A stretch of 64,000 bases of DNA from an uncultured Alphaproteobacteria bacterium (GCA_963822835.1 CAWGIZ010000010.1:29252-93251), one strand, 5' to 3'. Shown: positions 5,307 to 45,255, numbered from the stretch's first letter. The notes: generated by a model from the letters alone, not told the origin. Numbers and translations: made by a program.

Positions 5307-5317
5307 GACGTCTGACC

Positions 5318-5847
5318 CTATTTGCCCGAGCTGGCTGAATAGCGGGTGCCGTATTCCTGGAAATGAGCGGCGAGCTGCAGGACGATCTGGTTGGCGACGT
5401 CGATCGCCATGCGCTCCTCGCCGTCGCGCTCCGCGGTCAGGGTCGAAAAGTCCTTCTGGACGACGTCGAAGGACGCGATCGAATTGCCCGAGCCTGAAAA
5501 GACCACTTTGTCGGCGGAATCGCGCAGCAAATAGGTCGCGTTCAGGCGCAGATTCACGCGGGTGATGGACTCGTCCCGGCGGTAGCCGACGCCCTGGCGA
5601 TGCAGGTCCAGCTTGACCTCGAGCCGGTAATCCGGCGCGCCGGGCTCGCCTTCGGGATTGATCTGATCGAGCAGGGTGTTGCGGACCTGCTGCCCGATCC
5701 GGTCCGGGATCGGCGCGATCTGGATGCGCGCGAGATCGGCCGGAAGATTGCGGGTGCCGCCATCCGAGCCGTAAAGCGGCTGAAATCCGCAGGCGCCAAG
5801 CATCGGCGTGATGAATAGAACCAGGAAAAGGGCCCTGACCGCCGCGC

Positions 5848-5851
<4 letters not shown>
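5318..5851 (-). CDS. lptE: LPS-assembly lipoprotein LptE
   Basis: Intact 177 aa. Lipobox signal [10 protein letters not shown]|GF. Start overlaps the leuS stop by 4 nt, the usual leuS-lptE-holA arrangement. Confidence 0.8.
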
Positions 5852-8543
<2,692 letters not shown>

Positions 8544-8615
8544 TTACTTGCCTGACGGCGCCCGTTTCAAAGCCGCGGCTCCGGCGCCGGCCCCGTCGCC
8601 ATCGATGGCCTCCGA

Positions 8616-9104
8616 TCAGCCGTTATCGATCTCGCGCAGGCGGAGTTGCCGGGCCATGGTGAGGATGGCGTCCTCGATCTTGTCCGCCGTGCCCGGCTGG
8701 GTCGTCGGCCGACGACCCAGAGCGCCGGTCTGGTTCCGGACCTGGCGGAACACCGAAACCCGCAGCGTGTCGGCTCTCAGATCGCGACCGAGAATGAAGA
8801 CCTCGACCTTGACCCGCTCGTTCTGAACATCGGGCGCGGAATACCAGTCCGACAGGATTACGCCCGGCGACGGGATCGGCCTTGCTGAGCGGCATGAATT
8901 TGAGCGTTTCGAGGCTGGCGCGCCATAGCAGGCCGTTGACGCGGGATGCCGGTCCCGAAGCTTCTCGCCGAGGCGAAAAACCGCGTGCCGAACGGATCCT
9001 CGCCTTCCTTGCCTTTGATGCGCGCAACCCGCGACGAGAACGGCACAAAACAGACCGGTCAACGCCATCCGCGCGGCGCCATGCGTCAAAACCCTAAAAT
9101 TCAT
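8616..9104 (-). pseudogene. DUF3576-family lipoprotein; about 3 frame breaks as assembled
   Basis: Signal/lipobox MNFRVLTHGAARMALTGLFCAVLVAGC. DUF3576-like blocks sit in other frames (NGLLWRASLETLKFMPLSKADP; VILSDWYSAPDVQNERVKVEVFILGRDLRADTLRVSVF). Usual neighbour of leuS in this order. Confidence 0.65.
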
Positions 9105-11922: not shown

Positions 11923-12442
11923 TCAGACTTCGATCCGGATCGTGTCGCCGGGCTCGGCGTCCCGCAGAATCTCGAGCAAATCCGCTTTGGCGAGCGCGAC
12001 GCATCCTTCGGTCGGCGCGTAGTCCGGCTTGGCGCAATGCAGGAAAACAGCGCTTCCTGCGCCGGGCACCGGCGGATCGTCATTGTGGCCGAGCACCACG
12101 ACAACGTCGTAAAGCCCGTCGTCCCGCCACATCGTCTCGGCGCTGGCCGGGTAGGGCAGGATCACCGGCCGGTTATAGGCCGGATCGTCCGGTGCGTCGC
12201 ACCAGCCGTCATGACGCTCGATGGCGCGTGTGCCGAGCCCGGTTTGCGGCCGCGCGTCCCGGTCGGCGCGGTACAGAACGCGGCGCAACGGGAAGGATCC
12301 CGGCGGGTGTCGCCCGGTCGCCCTCGCGCTTGTCGGTCTTGATCCCGGCCGGGCCGAGCGCGCAAGGATAGTCACGGCCGCGCCACGTCACGGTGCCTTT
12401 GGCCTCGCCGGGGCGGGCGCGGACCTCGATCGTGCCTGTCAC
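11923..12442 (-). pseudogene. L,D-transpeptidase (YkuD) family protein; one frame break near 12300
   Basis: N-term fragment MTGTIEVRARPGEAKGTVTWRGRDYPCALGPAGIKTDKREGDRATPAG. C-term fragment carries the catalytic region GSAVFLHCAKPDYAPTEGCVAL (H..C). Confidence 0.65.
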
Positions 12443-13581
12443 AGATAGTGCCCGCTGCGCTTCTTCTTGGTCGAGAGGTAGAATTCGTTGTGATTATTGG
12501 GCGGAAAGGCGTGCGCCACCCTCTCGGCGACGGTGATTCCCGCCGCCTCGAGCGCCGCAACCTTGTCCGGATTGTTGGTCAGCAGCCGGATCGCGCCGAA
12601 GCCCAACGCCTTGAGCATCTCCGCGGCCACGATGAATTCCCGCTCGTCGGCCTTGAAGCCGAGCCGCTCGTTCGCCTCGATCGTGTCGAAGCCCTGTTCC
12701 TGCAGCCGGTAGGCCCGGAGCTTGTTGACGAGGCCGATGCCGCGGCCTTCCTGGGCGAGATAGAGCAGCACGCCCGCGCCCGCCTTGGCGATGGTCCGGA
12801 TCGCGCCCCGGAGCTGCGCGCCGCAATCGCATTTGAGCGAGCCCAGAAGATCGCCGGTCAGGCATTCCGAATGCAGCCGCACCAGATACGGGCGCGTCCG
12901 GTGCGGGCTCGCCGATCACGATGGCGAGATGCTCCGGACCGCCGTCGCGCGGCCGGAAGGCGACGATCCGCGATGCCTCGGCATCCTCGAGCGGCGACTT
13001 TGGTCGCGACCACGCGTTCGAGAAGCGGCATGGCGCCCTGATCGCGGAACCGCCTGATCTCGGCCAGGGTCACGACGGAAACGCCGCGCGCGGATGCCCA
13101 GGCCTCGGGTTCCGCCGCGTTACTGACCGCGACGGCGACGACCGCCGGCAAAAGGAGCGCCGGCCTTCACCAGGTCCATCGCGCCGCCTGACGCCGCGCT
13201 CACCGGATCGCGGGAGCGCTTGAAAGGGCCCCTGACCGTGCCGTCCAGATCATGCATCGGATCGGCAACCGCGCGGATCGCCTGGGCCGTCAATTCAGTG
13301 CCGACCGGCAGACGCAGAATGTCCTCGCCGCTTGGCGGGATATGAAGAATGGCGGCCCGGTTCGCGGTGATCAGGAGGGCAGGGCGCGCGCCGCTCCACC
13401 GGCGCAGCAGATCGAGAGACTCGTCCTGCACGAGTTCGGCCGCGAGTACGACCTCCGGCGCTTCGCTCTCCGCGCCGGCGATCAAGACGGGATCGCCGCG
13501 CCGCAAGGCCGAGATGGCGGCCTCGACACGGCGGCTCGTCGCGGGTATCGCGGGATCTGTCTGGTCCGGTTCCATACGCAT
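12439..13581 (-). pseudogene. ribA: GTP cyclohydrolase II with N-terminal DHBP-synthase-like domain (RibA/RibBA-like); at least 3 frame breaks
   Basis: C-term domain LHSECLTGDLLGSLKCDCGAQL..LYLAQEGRGIGLVNKLRAYRLQEQGFDT. The N-terminal part lies in two further fragments (13120-13581, 12858-13151). Confidence 0.8.
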
Positions 13582-13795
13582 CCGATCTTGAACCGCGGGC
13601 GGCAGACCTCATCTTCAAGGAACGGCACCCGTGGTCGCTCAACTGGCGAGGCGGATCATAGCGCGAAGACTGCTGAAAACCATATGATTCCGGGTATAGT
13701 GTGGCTCCTGTAGTGTCGTGAGCGCAGGACATTCGGCCCGGATGGGCGGCGCGGGCCTTCGGGACAAACCGTGCCCAAGGGAGTGAGGGGAGACT

Positions 13796-14488
13796 ATGGC
13801 TGGTCAAAAGCACATTCTGTTGGTCGACGACGATTCCACCCTGGCGCATACGCTGGCCGACCAGCTGGTGCTGCACGACGAATTCGGCACGACGATCGTC
13901 AGCTCGGGCAAGGAGGCCCTGGACACCGTCAAGGGCGGGCCATGTCGATCTCGTGATTCTGGATGTCGGCCTGCCCGATATCGACGGCCGCGAGGTCTGC
14001 CGCCAGATGCGCCGGCAGGGCGCGTCATATGCCGGTGATCATGCTGACCGCCGCCGATTCCGATGCCGACGAGATCCTCGGGCTCGAATCCGGCGCCAAC
14101 GACTATGTCGCCAAGCCGTTCCGGTTCAACGTGCTGCTGGCGCGGATCAGGGCCCAGCTCCGCCAGCACGAGCAAAGCGAGGACGCGGTCTTCACGGTCG
14201 GCCGCTTCTCGTTCCAGCCCGGCCTCAAGATTCTGGTCGACAGCACGACCGACTGCAAGATCCGCCTGACCGAGAAGGAGACCGCGATCCTCCGCTATCT
14301 CTATCGCGCCGGGAAGGAAGCGGTCAGCCGCGAGGTCCTGCTGAACGAGGTCTGGGGTTACAACTCGGCGGTCACCACCCATACGCTCGAAACCCATATC
14401 TACCGGCTGCGTCAGAAGATCGAGAAGGATCCCGGCGAATGCGAGCCTTCTGGTGACTGACAAGGGCGGCTACCGCCTGATCCCGTGA
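13796..14488 (+). pseudogene. OmpR/PhoB-family response regulator (receiver + winged-helix); 3 frame breaks as assembled
   Basis: HILLVDDDSTLAHTL; VILDVGLPDIDGREVCRQMR; MPVIMLTAADSDADEILGLESGANDYVAKPF; LTEKETAILRYL..VWGYNSAVTTHTLETHIYRLRQKIEKDP. True C-term ..LLVTDKGGYRLIP* is in a third frame (TGA 14486-14488). Confidence 0.85.
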
Positions 14489-15365
14489 CGTCCGATCCCG
14501 CGACGCCGGAACCGGAGCAGCCTCCGGCGCCCTTCTCGGCCAAATTCTGGGGCGTCCGGGGGTCGGCGCCGACGCCGGGCCGCGACACGCGGTCTATGGC
14601 GGCAATACCTCCTGTGTCGAGGTGAGGTGCGGCGACGACGCGTCTCCTGTTCGACGCCGGCACCGGGAATCCAGTCCTTCTGCCGTTCGGATGGCGCAAG
14701 GCGACGGCGCGGATCTCGATCTGTTGCTGAGCCACAGCCATATCGATCACATCTGCGGCCTGCCTTATCTCGCGACCCACCGGCCGCGCGGCTCGACCTG
14801 CCGCCTATGGGTCGGCCATCTCGAAACCGAGGCCGAGGTCCGTCACGTTCTCGAAGCGGTCATGGGGGCGCCGATCTTCCCGATCCATCTCGAGGACATG
14901 CCGCTCCGCTTCGATATCCGCCTGTTCCGCGCCGGCGACGTGTTGCGGCCCCATACCGGCATCGAGGCCGGCATCGAGATCCGCACCGCGCCGCTCAGTC
15001 ATCCCGACCGGGCGACCGGTTACCGCGTCGAGTTTCGGGGGCAAGTCCATCGCCTATGTCACCGATACCGAACATGTGCCGGGACGGCGCGATCCTGCGA
15101 TCGTCGAGCTGATCCGCGGACGCGGATCTCTTCATCTACGACTCGACCTATTCCGACGACAAATTCGCGCCCAAGATCGGCTGGGGCCATTCGACCTGGC
15201 AGGAGGGCGTGCGGCTGGCGGATGCCGCCGGGCGTGAAGACCTATGTGGTGTTTCACCACGATCCGGAACGGAACGATGCCGAAATGGACGAGATCGCCC
15301 GCGCGGTGGCAGACGCCCGGCTCGGCTCCGTGGTCGCGCGGGATGGCATGGTGATTTCCCTTTGA
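14485..15365 (+). pseudogene. MBL-fold metallo-hydrolase; several frame breaks as assembled
   Basis: GTG 14485 overlaps the regulator stop (GTGA). KFWGVRGSAPTPG; LLLSHSHIDHICGLPYL (HxHxDH); TYVVFHHDPERNDAEMDEI. Confidence 0.7.
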
Positions 15366-16079
15366 AGGCTTTGTTCGAGGCCGCCGCGCCCGCCTTCCGG
15401 AAGACGCTTGGCCTTCTCGAACATTACAGGGACGAGCTGCTCGCTTTCGGATCGGAGCCTCCGCCCGCGCCGCGTTTCGAGCAGGACTGGTTTCCCCGGC
15501 TGGACGGCGCCGTTGCCTATGCCCTTGTCCGGTCGGCCAGGCCGCGCCGGATCATCGAGGTCGGCGCGGGGCATTCGACGCGGTTTCTGGCGCGCGCGAT
15601 AGCGGATGAAAGTCTCGCTACGGCACTCATTGCGGTCGATCCCGCGCCGAAGCGCTCCCCCGAATTCCTGCCGGTCGACCATCTCAAATGCCCGGTGCAG
15701 GAGGTGCCGATCGCGACGTTTCGAGGCGCTCGGGCCCGGCGATATTCTATTTGTCGATTCCAGCCACAAATATGCGCCCGGGAGCGACGTGGCCTTCCTG
15801 CTGGATGACGTCCTGCCGCGTCTTCCGGCCGGGCTGCTGGTGCATTTCCACGATATTTTCCTGCCCGATGAGTATCCGGCCGACTGGGCCTGGCGCGGCT
15901 ATAGCGAGCAACAGGCGCTGGTCCCGCTGCTTGCCTCGGGCAGGTTCGACTGCCTGTTCTCAAGCCACTATGTGGCGACGCGGATGGGTGAGGCTCTGGA
16001 GGCGAGCCTGATCAGGCGCTTGCCTTTGGTTGAAGGCGCGCGCGAAACAAGCCTCTGGCTTCGAATCGCGGCGAGGTAA
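15362..16079 (+). pseudogene. class I SAM-dependent methyltransferase (Methyltransf_24/CmcI-like); one frame break near 15725
   Basis: IIEVGAGHSTRFLARA; after the shift DILFVDSSHKYAPGSDVAFLLDDVLPRLPAGLLVHFHDIF. Candidate TTG start 15362 overlaps the MBL stop. The 3' end overlaps the convergent deacetylase ORF by 68 nt. Confidence 0.6.
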
Positions 16080-16833
16080 CTTCCGCGAGCGCCTCGTCGA
16101 AGCCGATCCAGCGGGCGCCGTCCGATTTGTCGATATGAACCGCCAAACGGTCGAGAAAGACTTCGGCGGCGCGGTCGTGCTGGCGATGATGGGTCAGCAG
16201 TCCGATCGGTTCGCCGGGATCGTTGGCGACGCGGGCCTGGGCCTCGAGGAGCCCGATCAGCTTCTCCAGAACCGTTTCGGTGCCTGCGAAGCGCCTGGTT
16301 CGCCAGTTCATGATGTCGACATGGCTGTTCAGGGTCGGCAGCACCGCCTTGCGCGGCCGCGGCCCGAAGGTCGAAACCGCGACATAGCCAATCGGCTGAA
16401 GCCGGGGCAGAAGGCCGGGCGCGATCCGGTTCCACGGCGGCACCAGCACGGCGCGGCCATGATCGGGCAGGATCGCCTGCAGCCGGTCGAGGCCCATGCG
16501 CAACTCGTCGCACATCCGTTTGATCGGCCGGTGGTCGCCGAATTCGGCGCGTTTTTCCGAATGCGGGGCGTAATTCTTGTGAGCGAAGCCGTGCACCAGC
16601 GCCGTCCAGTTGTCGCCGCGCGCCAGGACCGAGCGCAGTTCCTTGGACGCGCCGGCGGGCACGACCGCGAGGGTCAGGGGAATGGCATGGGCTTCCGCGC
16701 GCTCCGCGAGACGATTGAGCTGCGGCGTCACGATCTCGGCGTCGTCGTCGCGCCACCACAGCCGTGCGGCGCGGCCCTCGCGCCTGAAGCTCTTCAATGC
16801 GGCATCGAGCCGCCGCCAGGATGCGATGCTCAT
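16012..16833 (-). CDS. polysaccharide deacetylase-like protein
   Basis: 273-aa ORF with LWWRDDDA..PLTLAVVP..LVHGFAHKNY..LVPPWNRI, last gene of the GT operon. The 3' end may be over-extended, since it overlaps the convergent gene. Confidence 0.6.
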   Translation of the reverse strand: MSIASWRRLDAALKSFRREGRAARLWWRDDDAEIVTPQLNRLAERAEAHAIPLTLAVVPAGASKELRSVLARGDNWTALVHGFAHKNYAPHSEKRAEFGDHRPIKRMCDELRMGLDRLQAILPDHGRAVLVPPWNRIAPGLLPRLQPIGYVAVSTFGPRPRKAVLPTLNSHVDIMNWRTRRFAGTETVLEKLIGLLEAQARVANDPGEPIGLLTHHRQHDRAAEVFLDRLAVHIDKSDGARWIGFDEALAEVTSPRFEARGLFRARLQPKASA

Positions 16834-16842
16834 GATGGCCCC

Positions 16843-18004
16843 TCAGGCGCTCCGCTGGCCCGGCGTTTCCGCGAGCCAGTGAGCCAGCAGCCCGGTGGTG
16901 TCCCGAGCGCCGCCAAGCCGGATCGAGCGTGCGATCCGGCGGCGGTCCGGCGAGTGCTGTATCGATCGCCCGCGCCAGGCGCTCCGGCTCAAGCTCTGCT
17001 TGCGGCACCATCTGACACAGGCCGCGCGCCACGAAGGCGTCGCCGCGCTGGCGTTGTTCGGTCTCGCGCTCGGTCTCGAACGGCACGACGACCATGCGCG
17101 TGCCTGCGCCGATCCCTTCGATCATGGTGTTGTAGCCGGCCCGGCTGATCGATAGCCGGCTTCTCGACAGCAGATCCGGCAGGCCCGGCCGGAAGCGCTC
17201 GACGATGACGCCGGGTGCCGCCATGGCGCGGCGGGCATCGAATTCCGTCGCCGGCGCATCGGCGCCAAGCAACACCCGCCACGGACAGTTGCGGGCGCTG
17301 GAAAGCGGCCGGGCCGCGAGGGCCGCGTCCATCAGGCTCTTCGCCGCCGCGCCGCCGCCCACCGAGACGACGATCTCGAAGCGCTCCTGTTCCGGCACCG
17401 GTTCGGCGACATGTTCGCCGACATAGCCCGTGTAAAGCACCTTCCAGCGGAACCGGTCGGCGCGCGGAAAGCTGAGCTCGAGCGGCGCGATCGCCGGATC
17501 GCTGTGAACCAGCACAGCGTCGTAATAGGCCTCGACCCAGTCGACGCATTGCGCCGGATCCGAGGGCGGCACCAGGATGTCCCGCACGGAGGCCATGATC
17601 CGCGGCCGCTTGGCCCGGTTGCGGCATTTGTCCAGCAGTTCCAGGATCTCCTCGCGGAGCTGGCGGCGGCCGAAGGGAAAATGTTCGGTGATCACGACAT
17701 CCGGCGCGGTGGCCTCCAGCGTCTCCAGCAGGCGGATGCGCCGGGCGGTGAGAATGGCATCGGAGGCCGGCTTGCCGGTCTCGTCCACGAGCAGGGAAAA
17801 GCTGGCGTCGGCGGCTCGAAGCGGCGGCAGCTGGACGAACGCCGCGCCGCCGAGGTCGAGGCCGGGCACCGGAAGGCCGCCCGAGACCAGCGTGACGCGA
17901 AAGCCGGCGTCGCTTAGGGCGCGCGCGAGACAGGCCGCGCGTTTCACATGGCCGATGCCCAGCAGATGCTGGACATAGAACAGGATGGAGCCCCGGCGCT
18001 TCAC
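16843..18004 (-). pseudogene. MurG-like/COG4671-type glycosyltransferase (paralogue of 20461-21642); one frame break near 16930
   Basis: N-terminal 360 aa of the 678-aa ORF (SILFYVQHLLGIGHVKRAACLARAL..SRAGYNTMIEGI). After one shift the tail IRLGGARDTTGLLAHWLAETPGQRSA* (stop 16843-16845) aligns with the paralogue's C-terminus. The rest of the 678-aa ORF is read-through. Confidence 0.7.
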
Positions 18005-19182
18005 GACGCGGCCTTGATCGATTGGCTCTGCCAGGCGATCGGATCCGGCAGCAGCATCCGCAAACGGTCGACGGCGGTGGCGAAGCCGTGGCGGTCGCGC
18101 GCCGCTTCGAACGCGCCGTGGCTCAGCACGCCGCGCGTCTCGGAATCCGCCAGAAGCCGGCCGATCGCATCGGCGAAGGCCTCCGGCCCGTCCTCCTTTA
18201 CGAGGATGCCGCTTTCGCCGTCATGGACGACTTCGGCGACGCCCGGCTCGGCACAGGCGACGGAGGGAATGCCGGCGGCGGCGGCTTCGAGATAGGCCAT
18301 GCCGAAGGCCTCGCCCCGGCCCGGCCAGACGAAGAGGTCGGCGGTCAGGAAGCAGAGATCGAGCATGGCCGGCGAGGCTTCGCCGATCATGGCGATGCGG
18401 TTCGGCGGCAGGTCCCAGAAGCCCGCCTCGACATCGCCCCGCGCCGGGCCGTCGCCCGCGACGACGAGCTGCCAGCGGCGCTGCGGATAGCGGTCGGAGA
18501 GGCTTTTGAGCGCCCGGCCGAGCAGGTTGTAGTTATCGGCCTTGCGGCCCTCGCGCATCATCGCGACGGTGAGAAGCCAGGGCGTGCTCTGATCGAGGCC
18601 CGCGAAGCTGCGGCAGAGCGTCGCCCGCGCCGCCTTGTGGGCGCGCCCCGTGGTCGGCCCGCGGAAATCGATGAACGGGGTGAAGCGGCGGATCGGGGCA
18701 TCCGCGCCGAGCGCGTCGTGGAGACCCTCCTCGTCGCGCGCCGTCATGGCGAGCAGGAGGTCGGCCGAACGCGCCGCCTTCAACGCGCTGTCATAACCCT
18801 GGGCCCACGCGCCGGTCTTTTGTTTCGGCGCGATCGAGGCCTCGGCCACGACATAGGGGATCTGCAGCTCCCGGGCCACGATCGGCCCGATCCAGTCGGG
18901 GGCCTTGTGATAGAGATGATAGGTGAACCAGAGCGACGGCGGATTGGCGTCCACCGCCTTGTTTGCCGCCACGATATGCCTGGCGATCGCCTCGCTCTGA
19001 CGCTTCACGGCGGCCTGGAACTGCCGGTTGCCGATGCCGTCGAAGGTCGTGAGCGAGCTGGCCACATAGGGGTCGTGCCCGGCGGCCTTCAGCGCGTCGA
19101 AGAACAGCCGCGCGAGCCGCCGGTCGCCGGACGGCACCGGGTCGTCCATCAGTTTCATCGGCGTGTAGAAGGCGATCCGCAT
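18001..19182 (-). CDS. GT4-family (GT-B fold) glycosyltransferase
   Basis: MRIAFYTPMK..; C-terminal EAFGMAYLEAAAAGIPSVACAEPGVAEVVHDGESGILV (E-x7-E region). 4-nt overlap with the downstream gene. The upstream 29 codons of the track ORF are probably not translated. Confidence 0.8.
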   Translation of the reverse strand: MRIAFYTPMKLMDDPVPSGDRRLARLFFDALKAAGHDPYVASSLTTFDGIGNRQFQAAVKRQSEAIARHIVAANKAVDANPPSLWFTYHLYHKAPDWIGPIVARELQIPYVVAEASIAPKQKTGAWAQGYDSALKAARSADLLLAMTARDEEGLHDALGADAPIRRFTPFIDFRGPTTGRAHKAARATLCRSFAGLDQSTPWLLTVAMMREGRKADNYNLLGRALKSLSDRYPQRRWQLVVAGDGPARGDVEAGFWDLPPNRIAMIGEASPAMLDLCFLTADLFVWPGRGEAFGMAYLEAAAAGIPSVACAEPGVAEVVHDGESGILVKEDGPEAFADAIGRLLADSETRGVLSHGAFEAARDRHGFATAVDRLRMLLPDPIAWQSQSIKAAS

Positions 19183-19186
19183 GGGC

Positions 19187-20464
19187 TTACCCCGCTTTGG
19201 CAAGGGAGAGGGACACGGAAGAAGAGGCGGGCACGGCGTCGGAAACACCGAGCAGTTCCGCCAGGGCATCGAGGGTCGGCTCGGGGCTGAAATCGTGCAG
19301 CAGCCGCGCGCGGGCGGCCCGGCCGAGCCGCGTCCGGAGCGCGGGATCGCTGATCAGGCGGGCCAGCGCGGACGCAAGCGCATCGGGGTCGTCGGACGGG
19401 GTCAGCAGGCCGGTCTTCTGGTCGAGGATCAGCTCCGGAATCCCGCCCGCCGTGGTCGCGATGCAGGCGAGCCCGGTGGCCTGCGCCTCCATCAGCACGT
19501 TCGGAATGCCGTCGCGGTCGCCCGAAGCGGTGACGCGGCTCGGCAGAACGAAAAGATCGGCGGCGCCGTAATGGGCCATCACCTCGTCCTGCGGCTTGGC
19601 GCCGAGCCAGGAGACGCGGCCGCTCAAACCGCGCACCACGGTGTCCGCCATCAGGGGGACGAGCTCGTCGCCCGCGCCGACATGGACGAATTTCCAGTGC
19701 AGCCCGTCCGGCAGCCGGTTGAAGGCGCGCAGGAGGTTGTCATAGCCCTTCTTGGCGACGGCGCGCCCGACCGAAAGAATGACGACCGGATTGTCGGGAT
19801 CGCGGCCGTCGCGCGCGGACCTTTCGGGTGGCCGCTCGCAATAGGTTTCGCGGAGGCCGTGGCGCAGCAGATGCACCACGCCCTCGGGCGCGAGGCGGGT
19901 CAGGTCTTCCGCCGCCTCGGCGGTGCAGGTCGCGGCGAAACGGCAGGCGGCGAGCTTTTCCTGCTTGTCCCAGTCCGGCGTGGTCCAGACGTCCTTGGCA
20001 TGGGCCGAGACCGAGAAGGGCAGGCGGCGCATCAGCGCGGCATACCGTGCGACGGAGGCGGGGGTGTGCAGAAAATGGGCGTGGATATGCCGGCAATCGG
20101 GATCGAGCTCGGCCGCAAGGACCAGCGCCTGGCCGAACCGGCGGATGCGGCTCGCGCTCGGATCGCGTTTCAGATCGCGCAGCCAGGCCTGCCGGGCGGC
20201 CGGATAGCCGGGCCAGCGGCGGACGAGCCGCCAGGCGCTGGCGACGCGGCCGGGATCGTCCTTCAGATATTCCGGCAGATAGGCGACCGGCGCCTGAATC
20301 CGCTGGTGGATCGGATGGACCGCCGGGTCGTTTGGCGCGCGAAGCGCATAAAGGCGAAGCGCAAGGCCGCGGTCCTCGAGGCCGAGCAGCTCCCGCGCGA
20401 TGAAGGTCTCGGAAAGGCGCGGATAGCCCTTCAGCACGACCGCGATATGGCCCGGTCCACTCAT
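19187..20464 (-). CDS. GT4-family glycosyltransferase (WcaL-like)
   Basis: Intact 425 aa. HIAVVLKGYPRLSETFIARELLGLE; DGIPNVLMEAQATGLACIATTAGGIPELILDQKTGLL. Confidence 0.8.
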   Translation of the reverse strand: MSGPGHIAVVLKGYPRLSETFIARELLGLEDRGLALRLYALRAPNDPAVHPIHQRIQAPVAYLPEYLKDDPGRVASAWRLVRRWPGYPAARQAWLRDLKRDPSASRIRRFGQALVLAAELDPDCRHIHAHFLHTPASVARYAALMRRLPFSVSAHAKDVWTTPDWDKQEKLAACRFAATCTAEAAEDLTRLAPEGVVHLLRHGLRETYCERPPERSARDGRDPDNPVVILSVGRAVAKKGYDNLLRAFNRLPDGLHWKFVHVGAGDELVPLMADTVVRGLSGRVSWLGAKPQDEVMAHYGAADLFVLPSRVTASGDRDGIPNVLMEAQATGLACIATTAGGIPELILDQKTGLLTPSDDPDALASALARLISDPALRTRLGRAARARLLHDFSPEPTLDALAELLGVSDAVPASSSVSLSLAKAG

Positions 20465-21642
20465 CCCGCCGACCTCGCCGGAATGTCGGCGTCCTCGAGC
20501 CAGGGCGCGGCCAGACGGCAGGTTTCATCGAGCCCGTCGAGCAGCCCGGTGATGCCGGCGGCCGAAGGTCTGGCCTGGACGCAAAGGCCCTTGATGGCGG
20601 CGGCCATGGCGGCCGGATCGCGCATCCCGTCGTCGCACAGCATGCGGGCCAGACCCAGCTCGGCCGCCCGTTCGGCGCGGATTCTCTGCTCCCGCCGGGG
20701 GGCATCGCGCGGTACCAGCAGCGCGGGAAGGTCGTAGGACAGGATTTCCGCGAAGGTGTTGTAGCCGCCCATGGCCACGATGCCGGACGCTTGCGCGAGC
20801 AGCCTCTCCATACGGGGCGAGAACACCTGCATATCGATCTGTGGCAGCGCCGCCGCGCGGGCCGCGAAGGCGTCCTGGGCGGCCGAGGCCATGAACGGGC
20901 CGAGCAGGATCGTCGCGCGCGGCAAATCCGCTCCCGCCAGCTCATAGGCCGAGAGCGTCCAGTCGATCAGCGCAATGCCGTCGCCGCCGCCGCCGGGCGT
21001 GACGAGAAGCGGTCCGTCCGCCGTGTCGGGCTCCGGGGCCGAATCCGCGCCGCGCCGGTCGAGATAGCCGGTGAACCGCATCCGTCCGCGCGCCATCGGG
21101 CTCACATCGAGGCCGGTCAGCGGATCCCAGATATTTTCGAGCCCGAAGACCCAGATGTCGTCATAGAGAATCTCGATCGCGGCCAGCGCCTTCTTGCGCC
21201 GCCACTCGGCGGCGAGCCGCTTCGGATCGTCGAGAATGTCGCGCAGGCCCAGCACGAGGCGGGTTCCGCGCGATTTGAGAAAATGCAGCGTTTCGGTGAC
21301 CTCGCCGCGCAGCCCGAGCGGCTCCTTGTCGACGAGGAAGAGATCGGGATCGAACCCTTGGGCGGTGTGCCGGATGAGAGTGGCGCGGGCGGCTATGGTC
21401 CGCTCGATCGGCTCGGAGGGATCAAGGGAAACGTAATCGCCGTCCTTCTGCTTCACCACGGCCGGAACGCTGACGCAGGTTACGCGCTCGGGCAGATCGA
21501 AGCGCCCGATCAGGGGCGAGCCGGACAGGATCTTGACCTCGAGCGAGCCGAATTCCGCCGTCAGCGCGCCGGCGATCGCGAGGCAACGGCGGATATGGCC
21601 GAGGCCGAAGCTGTCATGGCTGTAAATCAGGACTCGCGCCAT
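20461..21642 (-). CDS. MurG-like/COG4671-type glycosyltransferase, first gene of the operon
   Basis: Intact 393 aa. ARVLIYSHDSFGLGHIRRCLAIAGAL; VAMGGYNTFAEILSYDLPALLVPR. 4-nt overlap with the next gene. Confidence 0.75.
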   Translation of the reverse strand: MARVLIYSHDSFGLGHIRRCLAIAGALTAEFGSLEVKILSGSPLIGRFDLPERVTCVSVPAVVKQKDGDYVSLDPSEPIERTIAARATLIRHTAQGFDPDLFLVDKEPLGLRGEVTETLHFLKSRGTRLVLGLRDILDDPKRLAAEWRRKKALAAIEILYDDIWVFGLENIWDPLTGLDVSPMARGRMRFTGYLDRRGADSAPEPDTADGPLLVTPGGGGDGIALIDWTLSAYELAGADLPRATILLGPFMASAAQDAFAARAAALPQIDMQVFSPRMERLLAQASGIVAMGGYNTFAEILSYDLPALLVPRDAPRREQRIRAERAAELGLARMLCDDGMRDPAAMAAAIKGLCVQARPSAAGITGLLDGLDETCRLAAPWLEDADIPARSAG

Positions 21643-21842
21643 ACAGGCCTCAACCTATTCCACTCGCTACCGACACCACCCGGCCACGGTGAGAGCCCCT
21701 CAACGCGCCGCCGTTTACGAATTCGTCAGGCCGGACCCGCTAGTCTTGGCGGACCCGTTGATCCCCGTCGCCGGCCCGTTTCGAGAAGCGCCGGGGTCAT
21801 CACCCGAAGCGCCTTTCAAATCAGCCGGCTGAAAGCCCCCAG

Positions 21843-24370
21843 ATGGAACCGAGCCTCTACCGATACGTGCTGCGTCAGAGTTGGCGGCAGCAGATCGTGC
21901 TGGTTCTCCTGGCTCTCGTCTCGTTCCCGTTCCTCTACGTCTTCTACGAACTCCCGAAGACCATCGTGAACCGCGCCATCGCCCCGGAAACGGCTCATTT
22001 CCCCGTTTCGCTGCTCGGCTTCGAGCTTTCCCAGCGCGATTATCTGCTCGCGCTGTGCGGCGGATTGCTGCTTCTGGTGTTCGTCAATCAGGGATTCAAA
22101 TACGCGATTAACGTGTACAAAGGCATAACGGCCGAGAAAATTTTGCGGCAGATGCGGGCCGATCTATACGCCCGGATCCTGAAATTTCCCCTGCCGGTCT
22201 TCCGCCGGATGAGCCAGGGCAAGATCATCCCGATGATCACCGGCGAGGTCGAAACGCTGGGCGGGTTCTTCGGTGACGTGCTTGGCGCTGCCGGCCTTCC
22301 AGGGCGGGACGCTCGTGGTCGTGCTCGGCTTCCTGTTCGTCCAGAATCCGATCATGGCCGCGGCGGCGGTGTCGCTCTATCCGATCCAGATCATCGTCAT
22401 CCCGCGCCTCCAGGCTCAGGTGAACCGGCTGGCCAAGGAGCGGGTGCAACTTATCCGCGGGCTTTCCGATCGCATCGGGGAGACCGTGCAGGGCGTCGAG
22501 GAGATCCGGGTTCACGGCACGGCGGGCCGGGAGCAGGAGGATTTCCGCGCGCGGCTGGATGAGATTTTCCGGGTCCGCTACGCGATCTATCTGAGGAAAT
22601 TCGTCATCAAGGCGATCAACAATTTCATCCAGCATCTCGGGCCGTTCTTCTTCTATTCGATCGGCGGCTATCTGGTGATTCAGGGCGAGCTCGATATCGG
22701 CACGCTGCTCGCCGCCGTCGCCGCCCACAAGGATCTCGCGGCGCCCTGGCGGGAGCTGCTGAATTATTACCAGACCCTCGCCGATGCCCGGATCCGCTAT
22801 CAGCAGGTGGTGACCCAGTTCAATCCCGAGGGCATTGATCGAAACCTCCGAACGCCCGGCCGCCCGGCCCGGAAACCACGGCCAAAACGCGATCCTGATC
22901 AGCCATCTGACGGTGCAGGACGATTGGGGGCGTCCGGCGCTCGACGACGTGTCGCTGACGCTTCCGGCGGGGGGCCGCATCGCCTTTCTCGGCGGCACGG
23001 CGAGCGGTGCGGACGAGGCCGCCATGGCGATCGCCGGTCTGCTCGCGCCGGAGCGCGGGCGGATCGATCTGCCGGCCGAGGTCACGGCGGGCGATATCGG
23101 CTATATCGGGCCGAACGGCCATGTTTTCGCGGGCAGCATCGGCCATAACCTGTTCTATGGCTCGGATGGCGGGATGCTCGGGCCTGACGACGACCTGATC
23201 GATCGCGGGCTGGAGGCCCTGGCTGTCGCTGGTCTTGGCGACGATGTCTATCGCTTCGGCCTGCGCGGAACGGTCGATCCGACCTCGGATCCCGATCTGG
23301 CCGAGGCACTGCTGGCGGCGCGCCGCCGGTTCAGGCGGCGGATCGAGGATACGGCCGGTCCCGCGGGGGCCCCGGCGCTGGTCGAGTTCTTCGACGCCGG
23401 CCGCTACAACTCGAATGCGACGCTGGCGGAAAACCTGCTGTTCGGCGTCGCCACGGACGAAACCTTCGCGGTCGAGAATCTCGCCGATCAGCCCTATGTC
23501 CGGCAGATTCTGGACGAAGCCGGGCTGGCCGAGCCCCTGCTCGACATGGGCTATATCATCGCCTCGACCATGGTCGAGATGTTCGCCGGACTGCCGCCCG
23601 GTCACCCGTTCTTCGAGCAGTTCAGCTTCATCTCCTCGGCCGATCTGCCCTATTTCCAGTCGCTCACGGAGCGGGTGGAGCGCCATGCGGTTGCAACGCT
23701 CGGGGAAGTGGACCGCGCCCGGCTGCTGGGACTGCCCTTCAAGCTGATCCCGGCGCGCCACCGGCTCGGCGTGCTCAACGAGGATACCGAGCGCCGGATC
23801 CTGTTCGCCCGGCGGCTGTTCGCGGCCGGACTGCCGGACGATCTCCGCTCCCGGATCGCTTTTTTCGATCCCGAGCGCGCGACAGCGGCGGCGAGCCTCG
23901 CGGACAATATCCTGTTCGGCAAGGTCGCCCACGGCGCGGCGGGCGCAGCCCGTCAGGTCGATCAGCTGCTCGGCGAGATCGTCGAGGATCTGGGCCTCGG
24001 CCGGCGCATCACGGCGGCGGGTCTCGATTTCGACGTCGGCGTGGGCGGCGCGCGCCTCACCGGCATGCAGCGCCAGAAACTCGCGCTGGCGCGTGGTCTG
24101 GTGCGCGCGCCCTCGGTTCTGGTGCTGGTCAACGCCACCGCCGGGCTCGACGCCGCAAGCGAGGCGAAGGTCTTCGATTATCTGTTTTCTGCCGGAACGG
24201 GGCCCCGGACCCTGATCTGGAGCCTGCATCAGCCGGTCTCGGCGGGCCGTTTCGATCATGTCGTGCGGTTTGCCGACGGGCATGTGGCGGGAGAAGGCGT
24301 GACGGAGGGGGGAGGCGCGGCCCTCGATCACGGTACATGCGGGATTGAAAGCGACAGGAGGAACGGGACG
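21843..24370 (+). pseudogene. ABC exporter-like protein (TMD + degenerate, insertion-bearing NBD); 2 frame breaks (about 22280, 22832); 3' end uncertain
   Basis: TMD: MEPSLYRYVLRQSWRQQIVLVLLALVSFPFLYVFYELPK..; NBD equivalents GGTASGADE (22991-23017), LTGMQ (24056-24070), VLVLVNATAGLD. No in-frame stop before the cNMP module. Stops in the other two frames at 24300 and 24343, next to a G-run (24304-24312). Confidence 0.7.
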
Positions 24371-24842
24371 ATGACGGTCAGCCAAGGCGCTGCGGCGGAA
24401 AATCTCAACGAGGAAGTCGCCGTCCTCGGGCGCGTGCCGCTGTTTCACAGCATCGATCCGGCGAAGCTGAAGCTGCTCGCCTTCACGAGCGACCGGGTGC
24501 GGTTCGCGCCCGATGACGCTGATTTTCCGGGCCGGCGAGCCCGGCGATGCGGCCTATGTGATTCTGTCCGGCACCGCCGGGATCTATGCCGAGGGCGATA
24601 CGGGTCCAGCGGGAAGTCGCCAAGGCCGGAACCCATGAGGTGGTCGGCGAGATCGCGGTCCTGTGCGACGTGCCGCGCACCGCCACCGTCAAGGCGCTCA
24701 CCGAGCTCAGCGCCTACGCCTCACCAAGGAGATGTTCCTCCAGATGGTGCGCGAATTTCCCGACATGGCGATCGAGATCATGCGCCATCTCGCCCGGCGG
24801 CTGGAGGAGACCACCGACCGGCTGCGCCGCGCCGGTATCTGA
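24371..24842 (+). pseudogene. cyclic nucleotide-binding domain protein (or C-terminal module of the ABC protein); 3 frame breaks
   Basis: AGGAGG 24356-24361, ATG 24371. LGRVPLFHSIDPAKLKLLAFTSDRVRF / LIFRAGEPGDAAYVILSGTAGIY / HEVVGEIAVLCDVPRTATVKALTEL / TKEMFLQMVREFPDMAIEIMRHLARRLEETTDRL; TGA 24840-24842. Confidence 0.75.
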
Positions 24843-25684: not shown

Positions 25685-26308
25685 TTAAAAAATGTGCAGG
25701 GAGGTTCCGATCAATCCGAGCGGCCAGCGGCCGGCCTCGAACAGGCGGAATTTATGCGCCGGCGCGGAATCGTCCTCGACGCCGGCGGCAAGCACCAGCG
25801 CGGCCTGATGGGCGGCCTGGATCGCGGCTCCGGCAGCGGCGCGGATGGTTTCCTCGTCGTCATAGCCGGCCCTGAGGGCGGCATCCGCTGCGGCGTTCTC
25901 GATGACCTCCGCGATCATGCCGGAGAGATGGGTGAGCGAGAACGTCAGCAATTCCTCGTCCGTCAGTTCCAGCGCTTCGGCGGTCAAGGCACTTCTGAGC
26001 TGCTCCTCGGCTTCGAAGGCGGGCGTATCGACGTCGAGATTGGTCGCGGCGAACGCGGCCTCGGACCAGTCGACGACCTCGGCGAGCTCGGTCTCGGGAA
26101 AACCCAGCGCTTCGACATAGGCCTTGGCCAGGGAGCGGTCCTGCGGCGTGATCCGCTCGCCGACCCGGGAAAACCAGGGGATGTCCCGGGCGATCCGCGC
26201 AAAGCGCCGCACCGCGTCGAGCGTCGGGAAGTCCTCCTTCAGATCGACCGCGTCGTCATCGTCTTCGAACAGATCTTCCGGGGTTTCGGGAAACCGGCCA
26301 GCCATCAT
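25685..26308 (-). CDS. acidic conserved hypothetical protein
   Basis: Intact 207-aa ORF with strong GC3 codon bias and no family I can name (..DAVRRFARIARDIPWFSRVGERITPQD..). Confidence 0.55.
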   Translation of the reverse strand: MMAGRFPETPEDLFEDDDDAVDLKEDFPTLDAVRRFARIARDIPWFSRVGERITPQDRSLAKAYVEALGFPETELAEVVDWSEAAFAATNLDVDTPAFEAEEQLRSALTAEALELTDEELLTFSLTHLSGMIAEVIENAAADAALRAGYDDEETIRAAAGAAIQAAHQAALVLAAGVEDDSAPAHKFRLFEAGRWPLGLIGTSLHIF

Positions 26309-29859: not shown

Positions 29860-31064
29860 TTATAGCAGTTTGGCAATTCGGTTCAAGGCTTCGCCGACAA
29901 TGTCGGGCGGATCGACCATCGCGACGCGGACATAGGGCTTGCCGGGATTGACGCCCGTCCGGCGCCGGTTTCGCCGATATAGGCGCCGGGCAGAACCATG
30001 ACGGCCTGCTCCCGCCACAGCCTCTTGGCGAAGGCCTCTCCGTCGCCGACATCGAGCCAGAGATAGAACCCGCCCTTGGGCCGTTTGTATCCCGCCTTGC
30101 CCTTCAGGGCCGCCTCGGCCGCCTCGAATTTCTTGATATAGAGCGCCCGGCTCGCCTCGACATGGGTTTCGTCATTCCAGGCGGCGGCGGCGGCGGCGAG
30201 CACGGGGATCGGCGTGGTCGGGCCGGCGAGGCTCCTGAGCCGCTTGTAAGGCCGCGATGATGCGCTTGTCGCCGGCGACGAAGCCGGACCGCAGGCCCGG
30301 CAGGTTCGACCGCTTGGAGAGCGAGTGGAAGATCAGGACATTGGCGAAGGGATCGCCGAGATCGTTGGGAAGCGCCGGCGCAGGCCTCGAGCGCGCCCGG
30401 CGGAGCCTCGTACTCGTAGATCTCGGAATAGCACTCGTCCATGAACAGCACCGCATCGGCCGCGCGGACCCGCTCGATGGTCTCGGTGAGATAGGTCATG
30501 TCGGCGACCGAGCCCTGGGGATTGGCCGGCGAGCACAGGAACAGCGCCGACGCGCGGGCGAGATCCGCGCCCGGCAGCGCCGCGAAATCCGGCAGGAAGC
30601 CGGTATCGCGCCGTCGCGTCCAGCAGGATCGGGTCGGCATGGGCCGCGAGCGCCGCCGCGAGATAGCATTGGTAGAACGGGTTCGGCATCACGACGGCGG
30701 GCTTGTGGCCGCATTTCCGGGTCGGCGTCACCGCCAGGGCCGCGAGGAACAGGCCCTCGCGGGTGCCGGCGAGCGGCAGGATATTGTCGGCGCTGACCAT
30801 GCCGGGCGTGAGCTTGTAGCGCCGCGTCAGCCAGCCGGTTACCGCCTCCTGCCATTCCTCCGTGCCCTGGATCGGCGGGTATTTTCCGAAATCCGCCTCG
30901 CGCGCCTTCAGGATGTCGCCGACGAAGGCCGGGACCTTATGGCGCGGCTCGCCGAAGGTCATGTTGATCGGACCGAGATTGGCCGCCGGCGCGGTATCGG
31001 CGATCAGCGCGCGATAGCGCGGGAACATGTATTCGGGAAGATTGGCGAAACGGTCGTTCAGCAT
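29860..31064 (-). pseudogene. class I/II PLP-dependent aminotransferase (aspartate/succinyl-DAP aminotransferase-like); about 4 frame breaks
   Basis: MLNDRFANLPEYMFPRYRAL..; SPANPQGSV; IFHSLSKRSNLPGLRSGFVAG (PLP-Lys); GGFYLWLDV; tail NPGKPYVRVAMVDPPDIVGEALNRIAKLL* (stop 29860-29862). Breaks near 30605, 30385, 30255 and 29960. Confidence 0.8.
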
Positions 31065-31275: not shown

Positions 31276-32576
31276 TTACGCCACACTCTCTCCGTGAAGC
31301 GCGGTGTCCAGGCCTTCGCGCTCCTGCGTCTTCCGTAACCCGAATGCCGATCACCATGTCGATGATCTTGAGCAGGACGAAGGTGACGATGGCGGTCCAC
31401 AGGATCGTGAAGATGCAGCCATAGAACTGCGTCCAGATCTGGCCGACATTGCCTTCGATCGCGCCGGAGTGACCGCCGATCGCGTTGGACGGCGAACACG
31501 CCGGTCAGCATCGCGCCGACGAAACCACCGACGCCGTGGACGCCGAAGGTGTCGAGCGAGTCGTCATAGCCAAGCTTGACCTTGAGCCAGATCGCGGCCC
31601 AGGCGCAGATGATGCCGGCGGCGATGCCGATCCAGAGCGCGCCCATCGGATCGACGAAGCCGGAAGCCGGGGTGATGGCGACGAGGCCAGCAACCGCACC
31701 CGAGATCGCACCGAGAACGCTGGGCTTCTTGTGGACGATCCACTCAACGAACATCCAGGCCAGCGCCGCCGCCGCCGGTGGCGATCTGCGTGACCAGCAT
31801 GGCCATGCCCGCGACGCCGTTGGAGGCAACCGCCGAACCGGCGTTGAACCCGAACCAGCCGACCCACAGCAGCGAGGCGCCGATGACCGACAGCACGCAG
31901 GTTGTGCGGGGCCATGTTCTCGGTCTTGTAGCCGAGACGCTTGCCGAGCATGATGCAGGCCACGAGGCCGGCCACACCGGAGTTGATGTGAACGACCGTG
32001 CCGCCCGCGAAGTCGAGAACGCCGGCAGTGCTCGAGGAAGCCGCCGCCCCAGACCCAGTGAGCAGATCGGGGAGTAGCACAGGATCGACCAGCCGGTGAC
32101 ATAGACAGAGCACCGCCGAGAACTTCATGCGGTCGGCCACCGCGCCGAAAATCAGCGCGGGGGTGATGATCGCGAAGGTCATCTGGAACATCACGAAGAC
32201 GCTTTCCGGAATCGTGCCGGAAAGGGTGTCGACACCGACGCCTTTCAGGAAGGCCGCGCTCAGGTCGCCGACATAGGCGCCGTCGCCCTTGAAGGCGAGG
32301 CTGTAGCCGAGAACCATCCAGATGATCGTCACGAGGCCGGTGATGGCGAAGCTCTGCATCACGGTCGCGAGCACGTTCTTCTTGCGCACCAACCCGCCAT
32401 AGAACAGGGCGAGGCCGGGAATGGTCATCATCAGAACGAGCGCGGTGGATGTCAGCATCCACGCGGTATCGCCCGTATCCAGCTTGGGCGCATCTTCGGC
32501 GAAGGCGGCCGCGCTCATGAGCGAGCGAGTCGCCCAGCGGTCCGAGGCCGATACAAGCTCTCTTCAACAGTTTCAT
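31276..32576 (-). pseudogene. amtB: ammonium transporter AmtB; at least 6 frame breaks as assembled
   Basis: DTGDTAWMLTSTALVLMMTIPGLALFYGG; [19 protein letters not shown]; [14 protein letters not shown]; VLGAISGAVAGLVAITPASGFV; DDSLDTFGVHGVGGFVGAMLTG; tail EREGLDTALHGESVA* (TAA 31276-31278). 10 nt downstream of glnK. Confidence 0.9.
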
Positions 32577-39548: not shown

Positions 39549-39623
39549 GCGGGCGTAGCTCAGGGGTAGAGCACAACCTTGCCAAGGTTGGGGTCGTGAG
39601 TTCGAATCTCATCGCCCGCTCCA
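39549..39623 (+). tRNA. tRNA-Gly (anticodon GCC), CCA encoded
   Basis: Folds by hand: acceptor GCGGGCG/CGCCCGC, D-arm GCTC-AGGGGTA-GAGC, anticodon arm CAACC-TTGCCAA-GGTTG, T-arm GTGAG-TTCGAAT-CTCAT, discriminator T, CCA. Confidence 0.93.
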
Positions 39624-44244: not shown

Positions 44245-44339
44245 GGGCGCTTCCGGCCGCCCGCGGAGTGGCGGCTCAGAGCGTCCTATCACAAATGGAG
44301 CGGGGGCGGGGAGAGGGTTCTTGCCCGACGGGGCGCCGC

Positions 44340-45092: not shown

Positions 45093-45255
45093 GACACTCC
45101 TCCCGGAGCGAGTTCAGTTATGAATAGAGCCAGCCACAACCCGCCGCTTCCCGCGTCAGACGAGCCGCGGCGGTGCGCGGAAACGATGCCGCGAAACGCC
45201 TCTCCGCGCAACGGGAATTGTACGCCTGAGGACGGGGCCAGGACGGCGCGGACGC

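Follow-up and report, generated by a model that had tools for sequence, protein, structure and literature searches.

At positions 21843–24842 of a 64,000-nucleotide stretch of DNA from an uncultured Alphaproteobacteria bacterium (hereafter the window, in whose coordinates all features are given) lie two plus-strand genes that, once the reading frame is corrected, encode an 842-amino-acid protein resembling an ATP-binding cassette (ABC) exporter (21843–24374) and a stand-alone cyclic-nucleotide-binding (CNB) protein of 156 amino acids (24371–24842; PF00027). The ABC protein joins an exporter-type transmembrane domain (TMD) to a nucleotide-binding domain (NBD) whose A-loop, Walker A, Q-loop and Walker B residues are replaced and whose sequence is split by a long insert. 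The ABC-exporter fold itself is known; the design is real, widespread, conserved and uncharacterised.

Six-frame translation of 21.7–25.1 kb gives a single plus-strand coding path with several frame switches. DNA alignment with the two closest relatives, L001 and L003 (75–81% protein identity), locates single-base insertions at 22285, 22835, about 24336, 24517 and 24608 and a single-base deletion at 24713; removing the first three insertions restores the ABC open reading frame (ORF), and correcting the last three positions restores that of the CNB protein. The peptides quoted in the initial annotation, its AGGAGG and ATG and its phosphate-binding cassette all lie where it had placed them. It had also described the ABC gene as running into the CNB domain in the same frame without a stop, which is true of the raw sequence, where frame 2 is continuous from the NBD into the CNB domain, but this continuity is a product of the inserted base near 24336. 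With that base removed, the ABC ORF ends ...GLKATGGTGR*, its TGA lying within an ATGA at 24371–24374 and so overlapping the CNB start codon, and a plus-strand Shine-Dalgarno sequence, AGGAGG (24356–24361), stands 9 nucleotides 5' of that ATG at 24371. L001 has the identical 4-nucleotide overlap, and in L003 a complete 156-amino-acid CNB ORF begins where the 839-amino-acid ABC ORF ends. We therefore rejected an in-frame fusion in the window genome as most likely an indel artefact, since the ATGA and the Shine-Dalgarno sequence are kept and the two nearest relatives are unfused; in this lineage the ABC and CNB proteins are the products of two translationally coupled genes.

Is the ABC gene simply decaying? 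When the proteins of the L001 neighbourhood are compared with the window by tblastn, six genes besides the ABC and CNB genes are split relative to their orthologues, among them those for a YkuD-domain protein (11926–12436), an OmpR-type response regulator (13796–14442), a Methyltransf_24 protein (15368–16070), an aminotransferase (29958–31064) and AmtB (31279–32521), while four glycosyltransferase (GT) genes, xthA, lolA and ftsK are unbroken. The noise is therefore patchy and assembly-wide and does not reflect decay of the ABC gene, whose corrected ORF has zero internal stops. Ratios of nonsynonymous to synonymous substitution (dN/dS; Nei-Gojobori, window against L001 and L003) are 0.20–0.28 for the ABC gene as a whole and, by region, 0.08–0.16 for the TMD, 0.24–0.29 for the N-terminal part of the NBD, 0.25–0.33 for the insert and 0.22–0.23 for the C-terminal part of the NBD. 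The CNB gene gives 0.17–0.32 (0.17 against its L001 orthologue, to which the protein is 86% identical) and neighbouring genes 0.11–0.32. The ABC and CNB values of the window match those between L001 and L003, two relatives in which the genes are intact.

All three Pfam models that the initial annotation had proposed as a check score above their cut-offs on the frame-corrected proteins: ABC_membrane (PF00664) with 82.7 bits against 28, ABC_tran with 27.7 against 25 and cNMP_binding (PF00027) with 69.8 against 27.5. The raw, uncorrected pieces already match the same three. The TMD, of the type IV (type I exporter) fold, occupies 21843–22830 on the plus strand and is the most conserved region of the protein, which favours a role in or across the membrane. 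An AlphaFold2 model of the intact orthologue P0001, 81% identical to the window protein, was built from a 119-sequence alignment and reached a mean predicted local distance difference test score (pLDDT) of 85.4 and a predicted template modelling score (pTM) of 0.81, with pLDDT above 90 across the NBD and the insert. By fold the model matches TM287/288, TmrAB, PCAT1, MsRv1273c/72c and P-gp, at E values of about 1e-15.

The NBD departs from these proteins in its catalytic residues. With the register set by profile alignment to solved exporters, including the NBDs of BSEP, the position of the adenine-stacking A-loop aromatic (22919–22921) is Asp. The Walker A equivalent, GGTASGADE (22991–23017, within RIAFLGGTASGADE at 22976–23017), has Ala for Lys and Asp for Ser/Thr, so that GGTASGAD does not match GxxGxGK[ST]. 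The Q-loop region reads IGYIGPNGHVF (23096–23128), with Pro for Gln. The signature equivalent, LTGMQ (24056–24070), is a partial match to LSGGQ followed by a conserved RQK. Walker B and the D-loop lie in VLVLVNATAGLD (24116–24151), where VLVLVN stands against the consensus hhhhDE, and the H-loop is SLHQP (24221–24235); all are on the plus strand. The initial annotation held that every catalytic NBD motif was lost. That stands for Walker A, the Q-loop and Walker B, to which the A-loop can be added, but not for the H-loop His or the LD of the D-loop, both of which are kept. Its reading of Walker B as Asp-Glu to Asn-Ala was off by one in register, alignment to canonical NBDs giving Val-Asn; its spacing of 355 codons between the Walker A and signature equivalents was correct.

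How far does this degeneracy extend? A census of 272 diverse family members shows that it is graded. The A-loop position, canonically Tyr or Phe, is Asp in 230. At the Walker A Lys position, Lys is found in 131, Arg in 87 and Ala, as in the window, in 30, and the adjoining Ser/Thr position holds Glu or Asp in 200 and Ser or Thr in 27. The Q-loop Gln is Pro in 100 members and Gln in 76. In the signature motif, Ser is kept in 149 and replaced by Thr, as in the window, in 55, and the second Gly, Met in the window, survives in 29. The Walker B Asp (Val in the window) is Ser or Asn in 197 and Asp in 23, and the catalytic Glu (Asn in the window) is Glu in 155, Asp in 47 and Gln in 29. The D-loop Asp is present in 232 and the H-loop His in 130. 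The clade of the window (the window protein, L001, L003 and P0002–P0004) is among the most degenerate: there the family-wide changes are joined by loss of the Walker A Lys, of the catalytic Glu and of the Q-loop Gln. The nearest relative of this clade to contain the Lys is 55% identical. Across the family the Walker A Lys was lost in about 20 separate sequence clusters. The description of the protein as non-hydrolysing, made from the window sequence, thus appears well founded for the window clade, to judge by its residues, but not for the family as a whole, in which some 40% of members still pair a Walker A Lys with a catalytic Glu. What is retained through this drift of catalytic residues, namely the fold, D-loop, signature helix and insert, leads us to read the NBD as a dimerising regulatory platform.

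The insert itself, about 286 amino acids in the window (23165–24022, plus strand), has grown out of the NBD. A first unit, consisting of the Q-loop strand (with its Gln to Pro change) followed by GSIGHNLFYG, spans 23096–23161; the insert then contains the rest of this unit, the whole of a second, with ATLAENLLFG at 23417–23446 and an extended helical region, and the start of a third, with SLADNILFGK at 23894–23923. Each unit combines a short strand with an xNxLFG helix and the opening helices of the helical subdomain. When the family alignment was cut into the three units and these were compared profile to profile with hhalign, units 2 and 3 matched with an E value of 1.8e-10 (probability 96.9%, 59 columns), units 1 and 2 with 8.9e-6 and units 1 and 3 with 5e-4. 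The recurrence of the post-Q-loop motif, noticed at the outset, is therefore not due to chance, and the insert arose by tandem triplication of the Q-loop/helical-subdomain segment, unit 2 carrying additional helices. Its length is 250–295 amino acids across the family, and most members, though not the window clade, carry a further segment of about 45 amino acids in unit 1. Modelled alone with AlphaFold2, the 286-amino-acid insert of the window is predicted to fold with a pLDDT of 92.9 and a pTM of 0.88. Searches of the PDB with it returned chance-level matches only by sequence (best E 0.03) and no match by fold (best E 0.86, TM below 0.2).

The second constant element is the CNB protein. Of 80 genome loci, 79 have a CNB gene of 148–160 codons directly 3' of the ABC gene, with a family median gap of about 20 nucleotides between ABC stop and CNB start. 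In the window the phosphate-binding cassette GEIAVLCDVPRTATVKA (24646–24696, plus strand) is intact, as the initial annotation had said, including the Gly, Glu and Arg that in such cassettes make the ribose and cyclic phosphate contacts. Among 81 partner proteins, the Gly, Arg, Thr and Ala of the cassette GEIAVLCDVPRTATV (G-E-I-A-I-L-x-D-V-P-R-T-A-T) are invariant, and its Glu is present in 80 and Asp in one. The invariant Arg-Thr-Ala resembles what we take to be the cGMP-selective cassettes of PKG and CNG channels, a resemblance that is only a lead.

Elsewhere in the family the two proteins are joined. All 23 family representatives of at least 980 amino acids have a C-terminal domain 30–45% identical to the full-length window CNB protein, and each of nine long relatives tested with Pfam consists of ABC_membrane, ABC_tran and cNMP_binding. 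Such natural fusions are strong evidence that the ABC and CNB proteins act as one unit. The CNB partner is thus not peculiar to this genome but is syntenic in 79 of 80 loci and fused in 23 relatives, and the invariant core of the system is a degenerate-NBD exporter together with a CNB sensor. Two of the nine tested fusions (P0174 and P0202) additionally end in a GGDEF domain, which ties the module to cyclic di-GMP output.

Among 5.8 billion proteins searched, hundreds of relatives came to light that are about 870–890 amino acids long and 45–81% identical; they bear only generic names and span the TMD and NBD, or about 82% of a query in which the ABC and CNB proteins had been stitched together. 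With the NBD and insert as query, exhaustive HMMER searching gave at least 362 clusters at 50% identity (E at or below 1e-30), and a scan of one genome per species found the family in at least 237 species. The 80 loci retrieved include those of Sneathiella, Oceanibacterium hippocampi, Inquilinus, Kiloniellales, many alphaproteobacterial metagenome-assembled genomes (MAGs) and one Immundisolibacterales MAG. No NCBIfam exporter model reaches its cut-off. The best are those for MsbA, HepA, CydC/D, NHLM exporters and ChvA, and the highest scores are 150–195 bits against cut-offs of 329–1000 for the MsbA, HepA, ChvA/NdvA, PglK and CydDC equivalogs; assignment to a named exporter family was rejected on these grounds. 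The initial annotation knew of no characterised system of this design, and we too found no curated family and, in full-text searches of the literature, no description of one. Nor do close relatives carry canonical, insert-free orthologues: close and distant orthologues alike share the degenerate motifs and the insert.

Upstream, across an intergenic region of 200 nucleotides (21643–21842 on the ORF map), the ABC gene faces a divergent minus-strand operon of GT genes. Its first gene encodes a GT-B enzyme resembling Glyco_tran_28_C (20461–21642; nearest solved structure MurG, a weak match) and is followed by a GT4 enzyme (19187–20464; nearest solved structure PimB'), a second GT4 enzyme (18001–19182), a second Glyco_tran_28_C enzyme (16928–18004) and a conserved hypothetical protein with the pattern WWRDDD...HGxAH (16036–16833), the last placed in the operon by synteny. 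MurG and PimB' both act on lipid acceptors. The same divergent layout is found in L001, in L002 (the Oceanibacterium locus, 50% identical) and in most of L003–L082. In L001, L002 and nearly all loci with enough flanking sequence the operon runs GT28_C-like, GT4, GT4, histidine phosphatase, second GT28_C-like, a 254/274-amino-acid protein (the WWRDDD...HGxAH protein; 1719–2483 in L002, 4251–5075 in L001) and a 187-amino-acid protein with one hydrophobic segment and weak matches only, to bacterial PH domains. The histidine phosphatase and the 187-amino-acid protein were not found in the window clade, so that the glycoconjugate pathway counts five genes here against seven in most lineages. The operon had been reported from the window alone; it proves syntenic with the module across Alphaproteobacteria, down to about 45% identity and in at least 70 alphaproteobacterial loci. 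The conserved set contains no priming phosphoglycosyl transferase, Wzx/Wzy or Wza genes. The WWRDDD...HGxAH protein has no Pfam family above threshold and no PDB relative; a sub-threshold DUF2334 match, seen in its orthologues only, makes a weak case for a possible carbohydrate deacetylase. Its presence alongside GT4 enzymes and a histidine phosphatase recalls pathways for glucosamine-containing glycosides and glycolipids.

Other lineages surround the module differently. In L083 a class III cyclase gene (12171–13451) overlaps the fusion gene where the latter ends; in L084 there are two class III cyclase genes (7565–8992 and 12608–14215) and a gene for an Apyc1-like metallo-β-lactamase (MBL) fold protein (6803–7573); L085 has an Apyc1-like MBL gene directly upstream (5192–5971); and L075 has an MBL gene (5895–6692) and a cyclase gene upstream. 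L087 contains only the ABC and CNB genes and L086 the ABC gene alone. MBL phosphodiesterases of the Apyc1 kind cleave cyclic nucleoside monophosphates (cNMPs) (PMC9117128). An Apyc1-like MBL gene (HxHxDH) thus adjoins the ABC-CNB module repeatedly, in unrelated lineages. The window clade, too, has a gene for a putative cNMP phosphodiesterase of this kind, just past the GT operon; in the window it lies on the plus strand (14518–15362, with HSHIDH at 14733) and split by indels; its link to the module is tentative. Class III cyclases are absent from the 64-kb window. One tblastn match at 45133–45597 was rejected as a cyclase: it is a DUF427 domain and matches only the N-terminal domain of an L084 cyclase.

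That domain belongs to a minus-strand DUF427/NTP_transf_9 ORF (45256–45612), near which, also on the minus strand, lie ORFs for a calcineurin-like phosphoesterase (43573–45051) and a PAS-GGDEF diguanylate cyclase (46799–47815). Between xthA and lolA the window encodes a conserved 206-amino-acid protein without a Pfam family (25685–26308, minus strand; 13954–14574 in L001), 85% identical between the window and L001 with a dN/dS of 0.13. Opp/Dpp-type ABC importer genes recur beside the cluster in other genomes (L002, 1–1166; many Sneathiella, about 500–1100; L084, 832–6772; L087, 674–1813). A tRNA-Gly gene (GCC) at 39549–39623 on the plus strand is the sole Rfam or ARAGORN match in the window.

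What might such a module do? We regard it as roughly an even call that the locus encodes a cNMP-gated translocase, or regulator, for the glycoconjugate of the divergent operon, working without classical ATP hydrolysis. Its first component would be a half-transporter of the type IV ABC-exporter fold, presumably a homodimer because none of 87 loci has a second exporter-type ABC gene within 7 kb, and its NBD would serve as a structural and regulatory module instead of an ATPase. The second component, the single-domain 156-amino-acid CNB protein, would dock on the cytoplasmic part of the ABC protein. Binding of a cNMP to this partner would switch the degenerate NBD dimer from open to closed or back, this switch would gate the conserved TMD, and the gated TMD would flip or export a glycoconjugate, probably lipid-linked, made by the operon of four glycosyltransferases. 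Transport would then be facilitated or gated, not driven by ATP hydrolysis. Complex formation, the identity of the ligand, the lack of hydrolysis and the substrate are all parts that we infer from sequence. Extended to the family at large, the proposal would be that a widespread group of ABC exporters has abandoned its hydrolysis engine and that its NBD dimer is driven or gated, by way of the triplicated domain, by a CNB subunit that is either a protein of its own or fused. The result would be a cNMP-gated translocase or channel for a glycoconjugate, probably a lipid-linked one; in this general form we hold it only tentatively and think it somewhat unlikely.

Several observations weigh against a gated, non-hydrolysing translocase. 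Canonical Walker A and Walker B motifs occur together in 4 of the 272 members, and 109 combine a Walker A Lys with a catalytic Glu, so some branches of the family may still bind or hydrolyse ATP. The Walker A Ser/Thr position (window residue 389, 23015–23017) co-varies with the Walker B Asp position (residue 761, 24131–24133), Ser/Thr going with Asp and Glu/Asp with Ser/Asn (odds ratio 10.5, Fisher p 8e-6, not phylogeny-corrected); in less degenerate members the Glu/Asp and Ser/Asn pairing could be a swapped Mg2+ ligand pair instead of a loss. The best-kept NBD motifs are the signature helix (QRQK) and the D-loop, a pattern that a non-catalytic heterodimer subunit would also show. The CNB fold can accept ligands other than cNMPs, as the ppGpp-binding CNB domain of HetC illustrates (PMC10986499). 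Finally, the GT operon is absent in some carriers of the module (L075 and L083–L087). Glycoconjugate export is therefore not a universal function and the polysaccharide link is clade-specific: the role in a polysaccharide pathway suggested in the initial annotation agrees with the synteny in Alphaproteobacteria, but not with the lineages in which the module lies among cyclase and phosphodiesterase-like genes.

These same lineages invite a different interpretation, in which the protein does not transport at all and is a membrane signalling scaffold or receptor, its exporter fold serving, in the manner of SUR, a channel regulator that does not itself transport, as a sensor or anchor that controls cyclases, GGDEF output or glycosyltransferases. 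The fused relatives that carry GGDEF domains or are flanked by class III cyclases and Apyc1-like MBL proteins, without a GT operon, fit this interpretation, as does the repeated erosion of catalytic residues. However, the TMD is the most constrained part of the protein (dN/dS 0.08–0.16) and the full exporter architecture is kept, and the tight partner in at least 70 alphaproteobacterial loci is a biosynthetic GT operon, not a set of signalling enzymes; we consider a scaffold unlikely.

A second possibility is a heterodimeric exporter to which this protein contributes the non-catalytic half, with a canonical partner encoded elsewhere and one consensus site powering transport. In bacteria the two genes of a heterodimeric exporter normally lie side by side, and none of the 87 loci has a second type IV exporter TMD gene within 7 kb, though a distant partner is possible. 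The elements kept best, the signature QRQK helix and the D-loop, are those that such a half donates to its partner's consensus site; yet the second Gly of LSGGQ is mostly lost (kept in 29 of 272), and the insert of about 270 amino acids sits in the helical subdomain, at the NBD dimer interface. Known degenerate sites are indeed found in heterodimeric or full-length exporters (PMC7756269). On balance this arrangement seems to us quite improbable.

Could the protein instead be a pump driven by ATP or another nucleoside triphosphate through an unconventional site, its swapped Mg2+ ligand pair formed by the acidic residue after the Walker A Lys/Arg and the Ser/Asn at Walker B, with the CNB protein only modulating it? 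The Walker A/Walker B co-variation, uncorrected for phylogeny as it is, and the 109 members with both Lys and catalytic Glu speak for such a site. The window clade, however, has no Lys, no Walker B acidic pair (Val-Asn or Val-Asp), no Q-loop Gln and no A-loop aromatic, yet is under the same purifying selection, and Lys has been lost in about 20 separate lineages, which makes us very doubtful of an unconventional pump.

An anti-phage effector of the Pycsar or Pucsar kind, in which a cyclase-made cNMP triggers a CNB-controlled membrane protein, or alternatively a cNMP efflux pump, strikes us as highly improbable. The class III cyclases beside fused relatives do match PycC models (1e-24 to 1e-26, partial coverage), PycTIR models match the CNB protein over their CNB part (1e-16), and several loci have an Apyc1-like MBL gene as a neighbour. 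But the PADLOC matches reflect generic domain homology, the 64-kb window has no cyclase, and the locus is conserved vertically across orders between xthA/lolA/ftsK and the biosynthetic operon, unlike a defence island; with domain-level matches only and housekeeping synteny, we rejected membership of a Pycsar-type defence system. We likewise discard, as scarcely credible, the notion that an ordinary ABC exporter gene is decaying here into a pseudogene: the lost catalytic motifs and the six single-base indels within 3 kb might suggest as much, but like indels split unrelated and likely indispensable window genes, the corrected frame has no stops, dN/dS (0.2–0.3) equals the value between two intact relatives, and intact orthologues, none of them canonical among close relatives, share the motif states and the insert.

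If a cNMP-gated translocase is indeed what these genes encode, it would be the first ABC transporter known to be under direct cyclic-nucleotide control and to work without any consensus ATP site. ABC exporters are defined by ATP-driven NBD dimerisation, and to our knowledge degenerate sites are always partnered by a working one. A family that appears to be encoded by a single gene, whose catalytic residues have been eroded repeatedly under purifying selection and which is tied to a cyclic-nucleotide sensor, would illustrate the re-use of an exporter scaffold with another control input, a bacterial parallel to what CFTR and SUR do. The module also draws attention to an NBD elaboration that is confidently predicted and has no PDB counterpart, to an uncharacterised glycoconjugate pathway common to many marine and soil Alphaproteobacteria, and to a putative direct effector of cAMP or cGMP in bacteria, where we know of few non-transcriptional ones. 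Cultured carriers, including Oceanibacterium hippocampi CECT 7691 and several Sneathiella strains, make the proposal testable.

How does the module compare with known systems? Its best NCBIfam and PDB relatives are MsbA, PglK, ChvA/NdvA and HepA, which likewise place a six-helix ABC_membrane domain and an NBD on one polypeptide and are associated with GT genes. The family differs from them in its substituted motifs, in the triplicated insert of 250–295 amino acids that splits its NBD and in its obligatory CNB partner; its scores lie far below the cut-offs for MsbA (150–195 bits against 602) and HepA (119–192 against 725). Coupling of an ABC exporter to a domain of the cNMP-binding fold is known from HetC of Nostoc PCC 7120 and from NHLP/NHLM bacteriocin exporters, which have CNB domains or accessory CNB proteins (TIGR03896), HetC having an N-terminal CNB domain beside a C39 peptidase, canonical and essential ATPase residues and ppGpp as its in-vitro ligand (PMC10986499). 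Unlike TIGR03896 proteins, the CNB partners described here have a single CNB domain, not two, and score 35–42 bits (42 for the window) against a cut-off of 161. Pycsar effectors, in which a CNB domain is joined to transmembrane or TIR domains, would offer a parallel as CNB-controlled membrane proteins, and cyclase and MBL phosphodiesterase homologues adjoin the fused relatives; the module differs in having a full ABC exporter fold of more than 800 amino acids as its membrane part, in its vertical inheritance within a housekeeping neighbourhood and in the window's lack of a cyclase.

Another comparison is with exporters that have a degenerate site. TM287/288, TmrAB, BmrCD, CFTR and SUR share the fold and have non-canonical Walker B, H-loop or signature residues; in such exporters the NBD site is used for regulation, not hydrolysis, and one consensus site is kept alongside an ATP-binding degenerate site with an intact Walker A (PMC7756269). 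By contrast, the family described here has a single gene in which the A-loop, Walker A, Q-loop and Walker B are all substituted, so that a homodimer would have zero consensus sites. CFTR (ABCC7) is an exporter fold turned channel, placed under cAMP control through PKA and phosphorylation of its R domain, with one hydrolytic site kept. The likeness extends to the exporter scaffold, the degenerate site, a large insertion in or after an NBD and the logic of cyclic-nucleotide control; the module would differ in having a CNB protein as a direct partner, and its insert consists of repeated NBD elements, in contrast to the disordered R domain.

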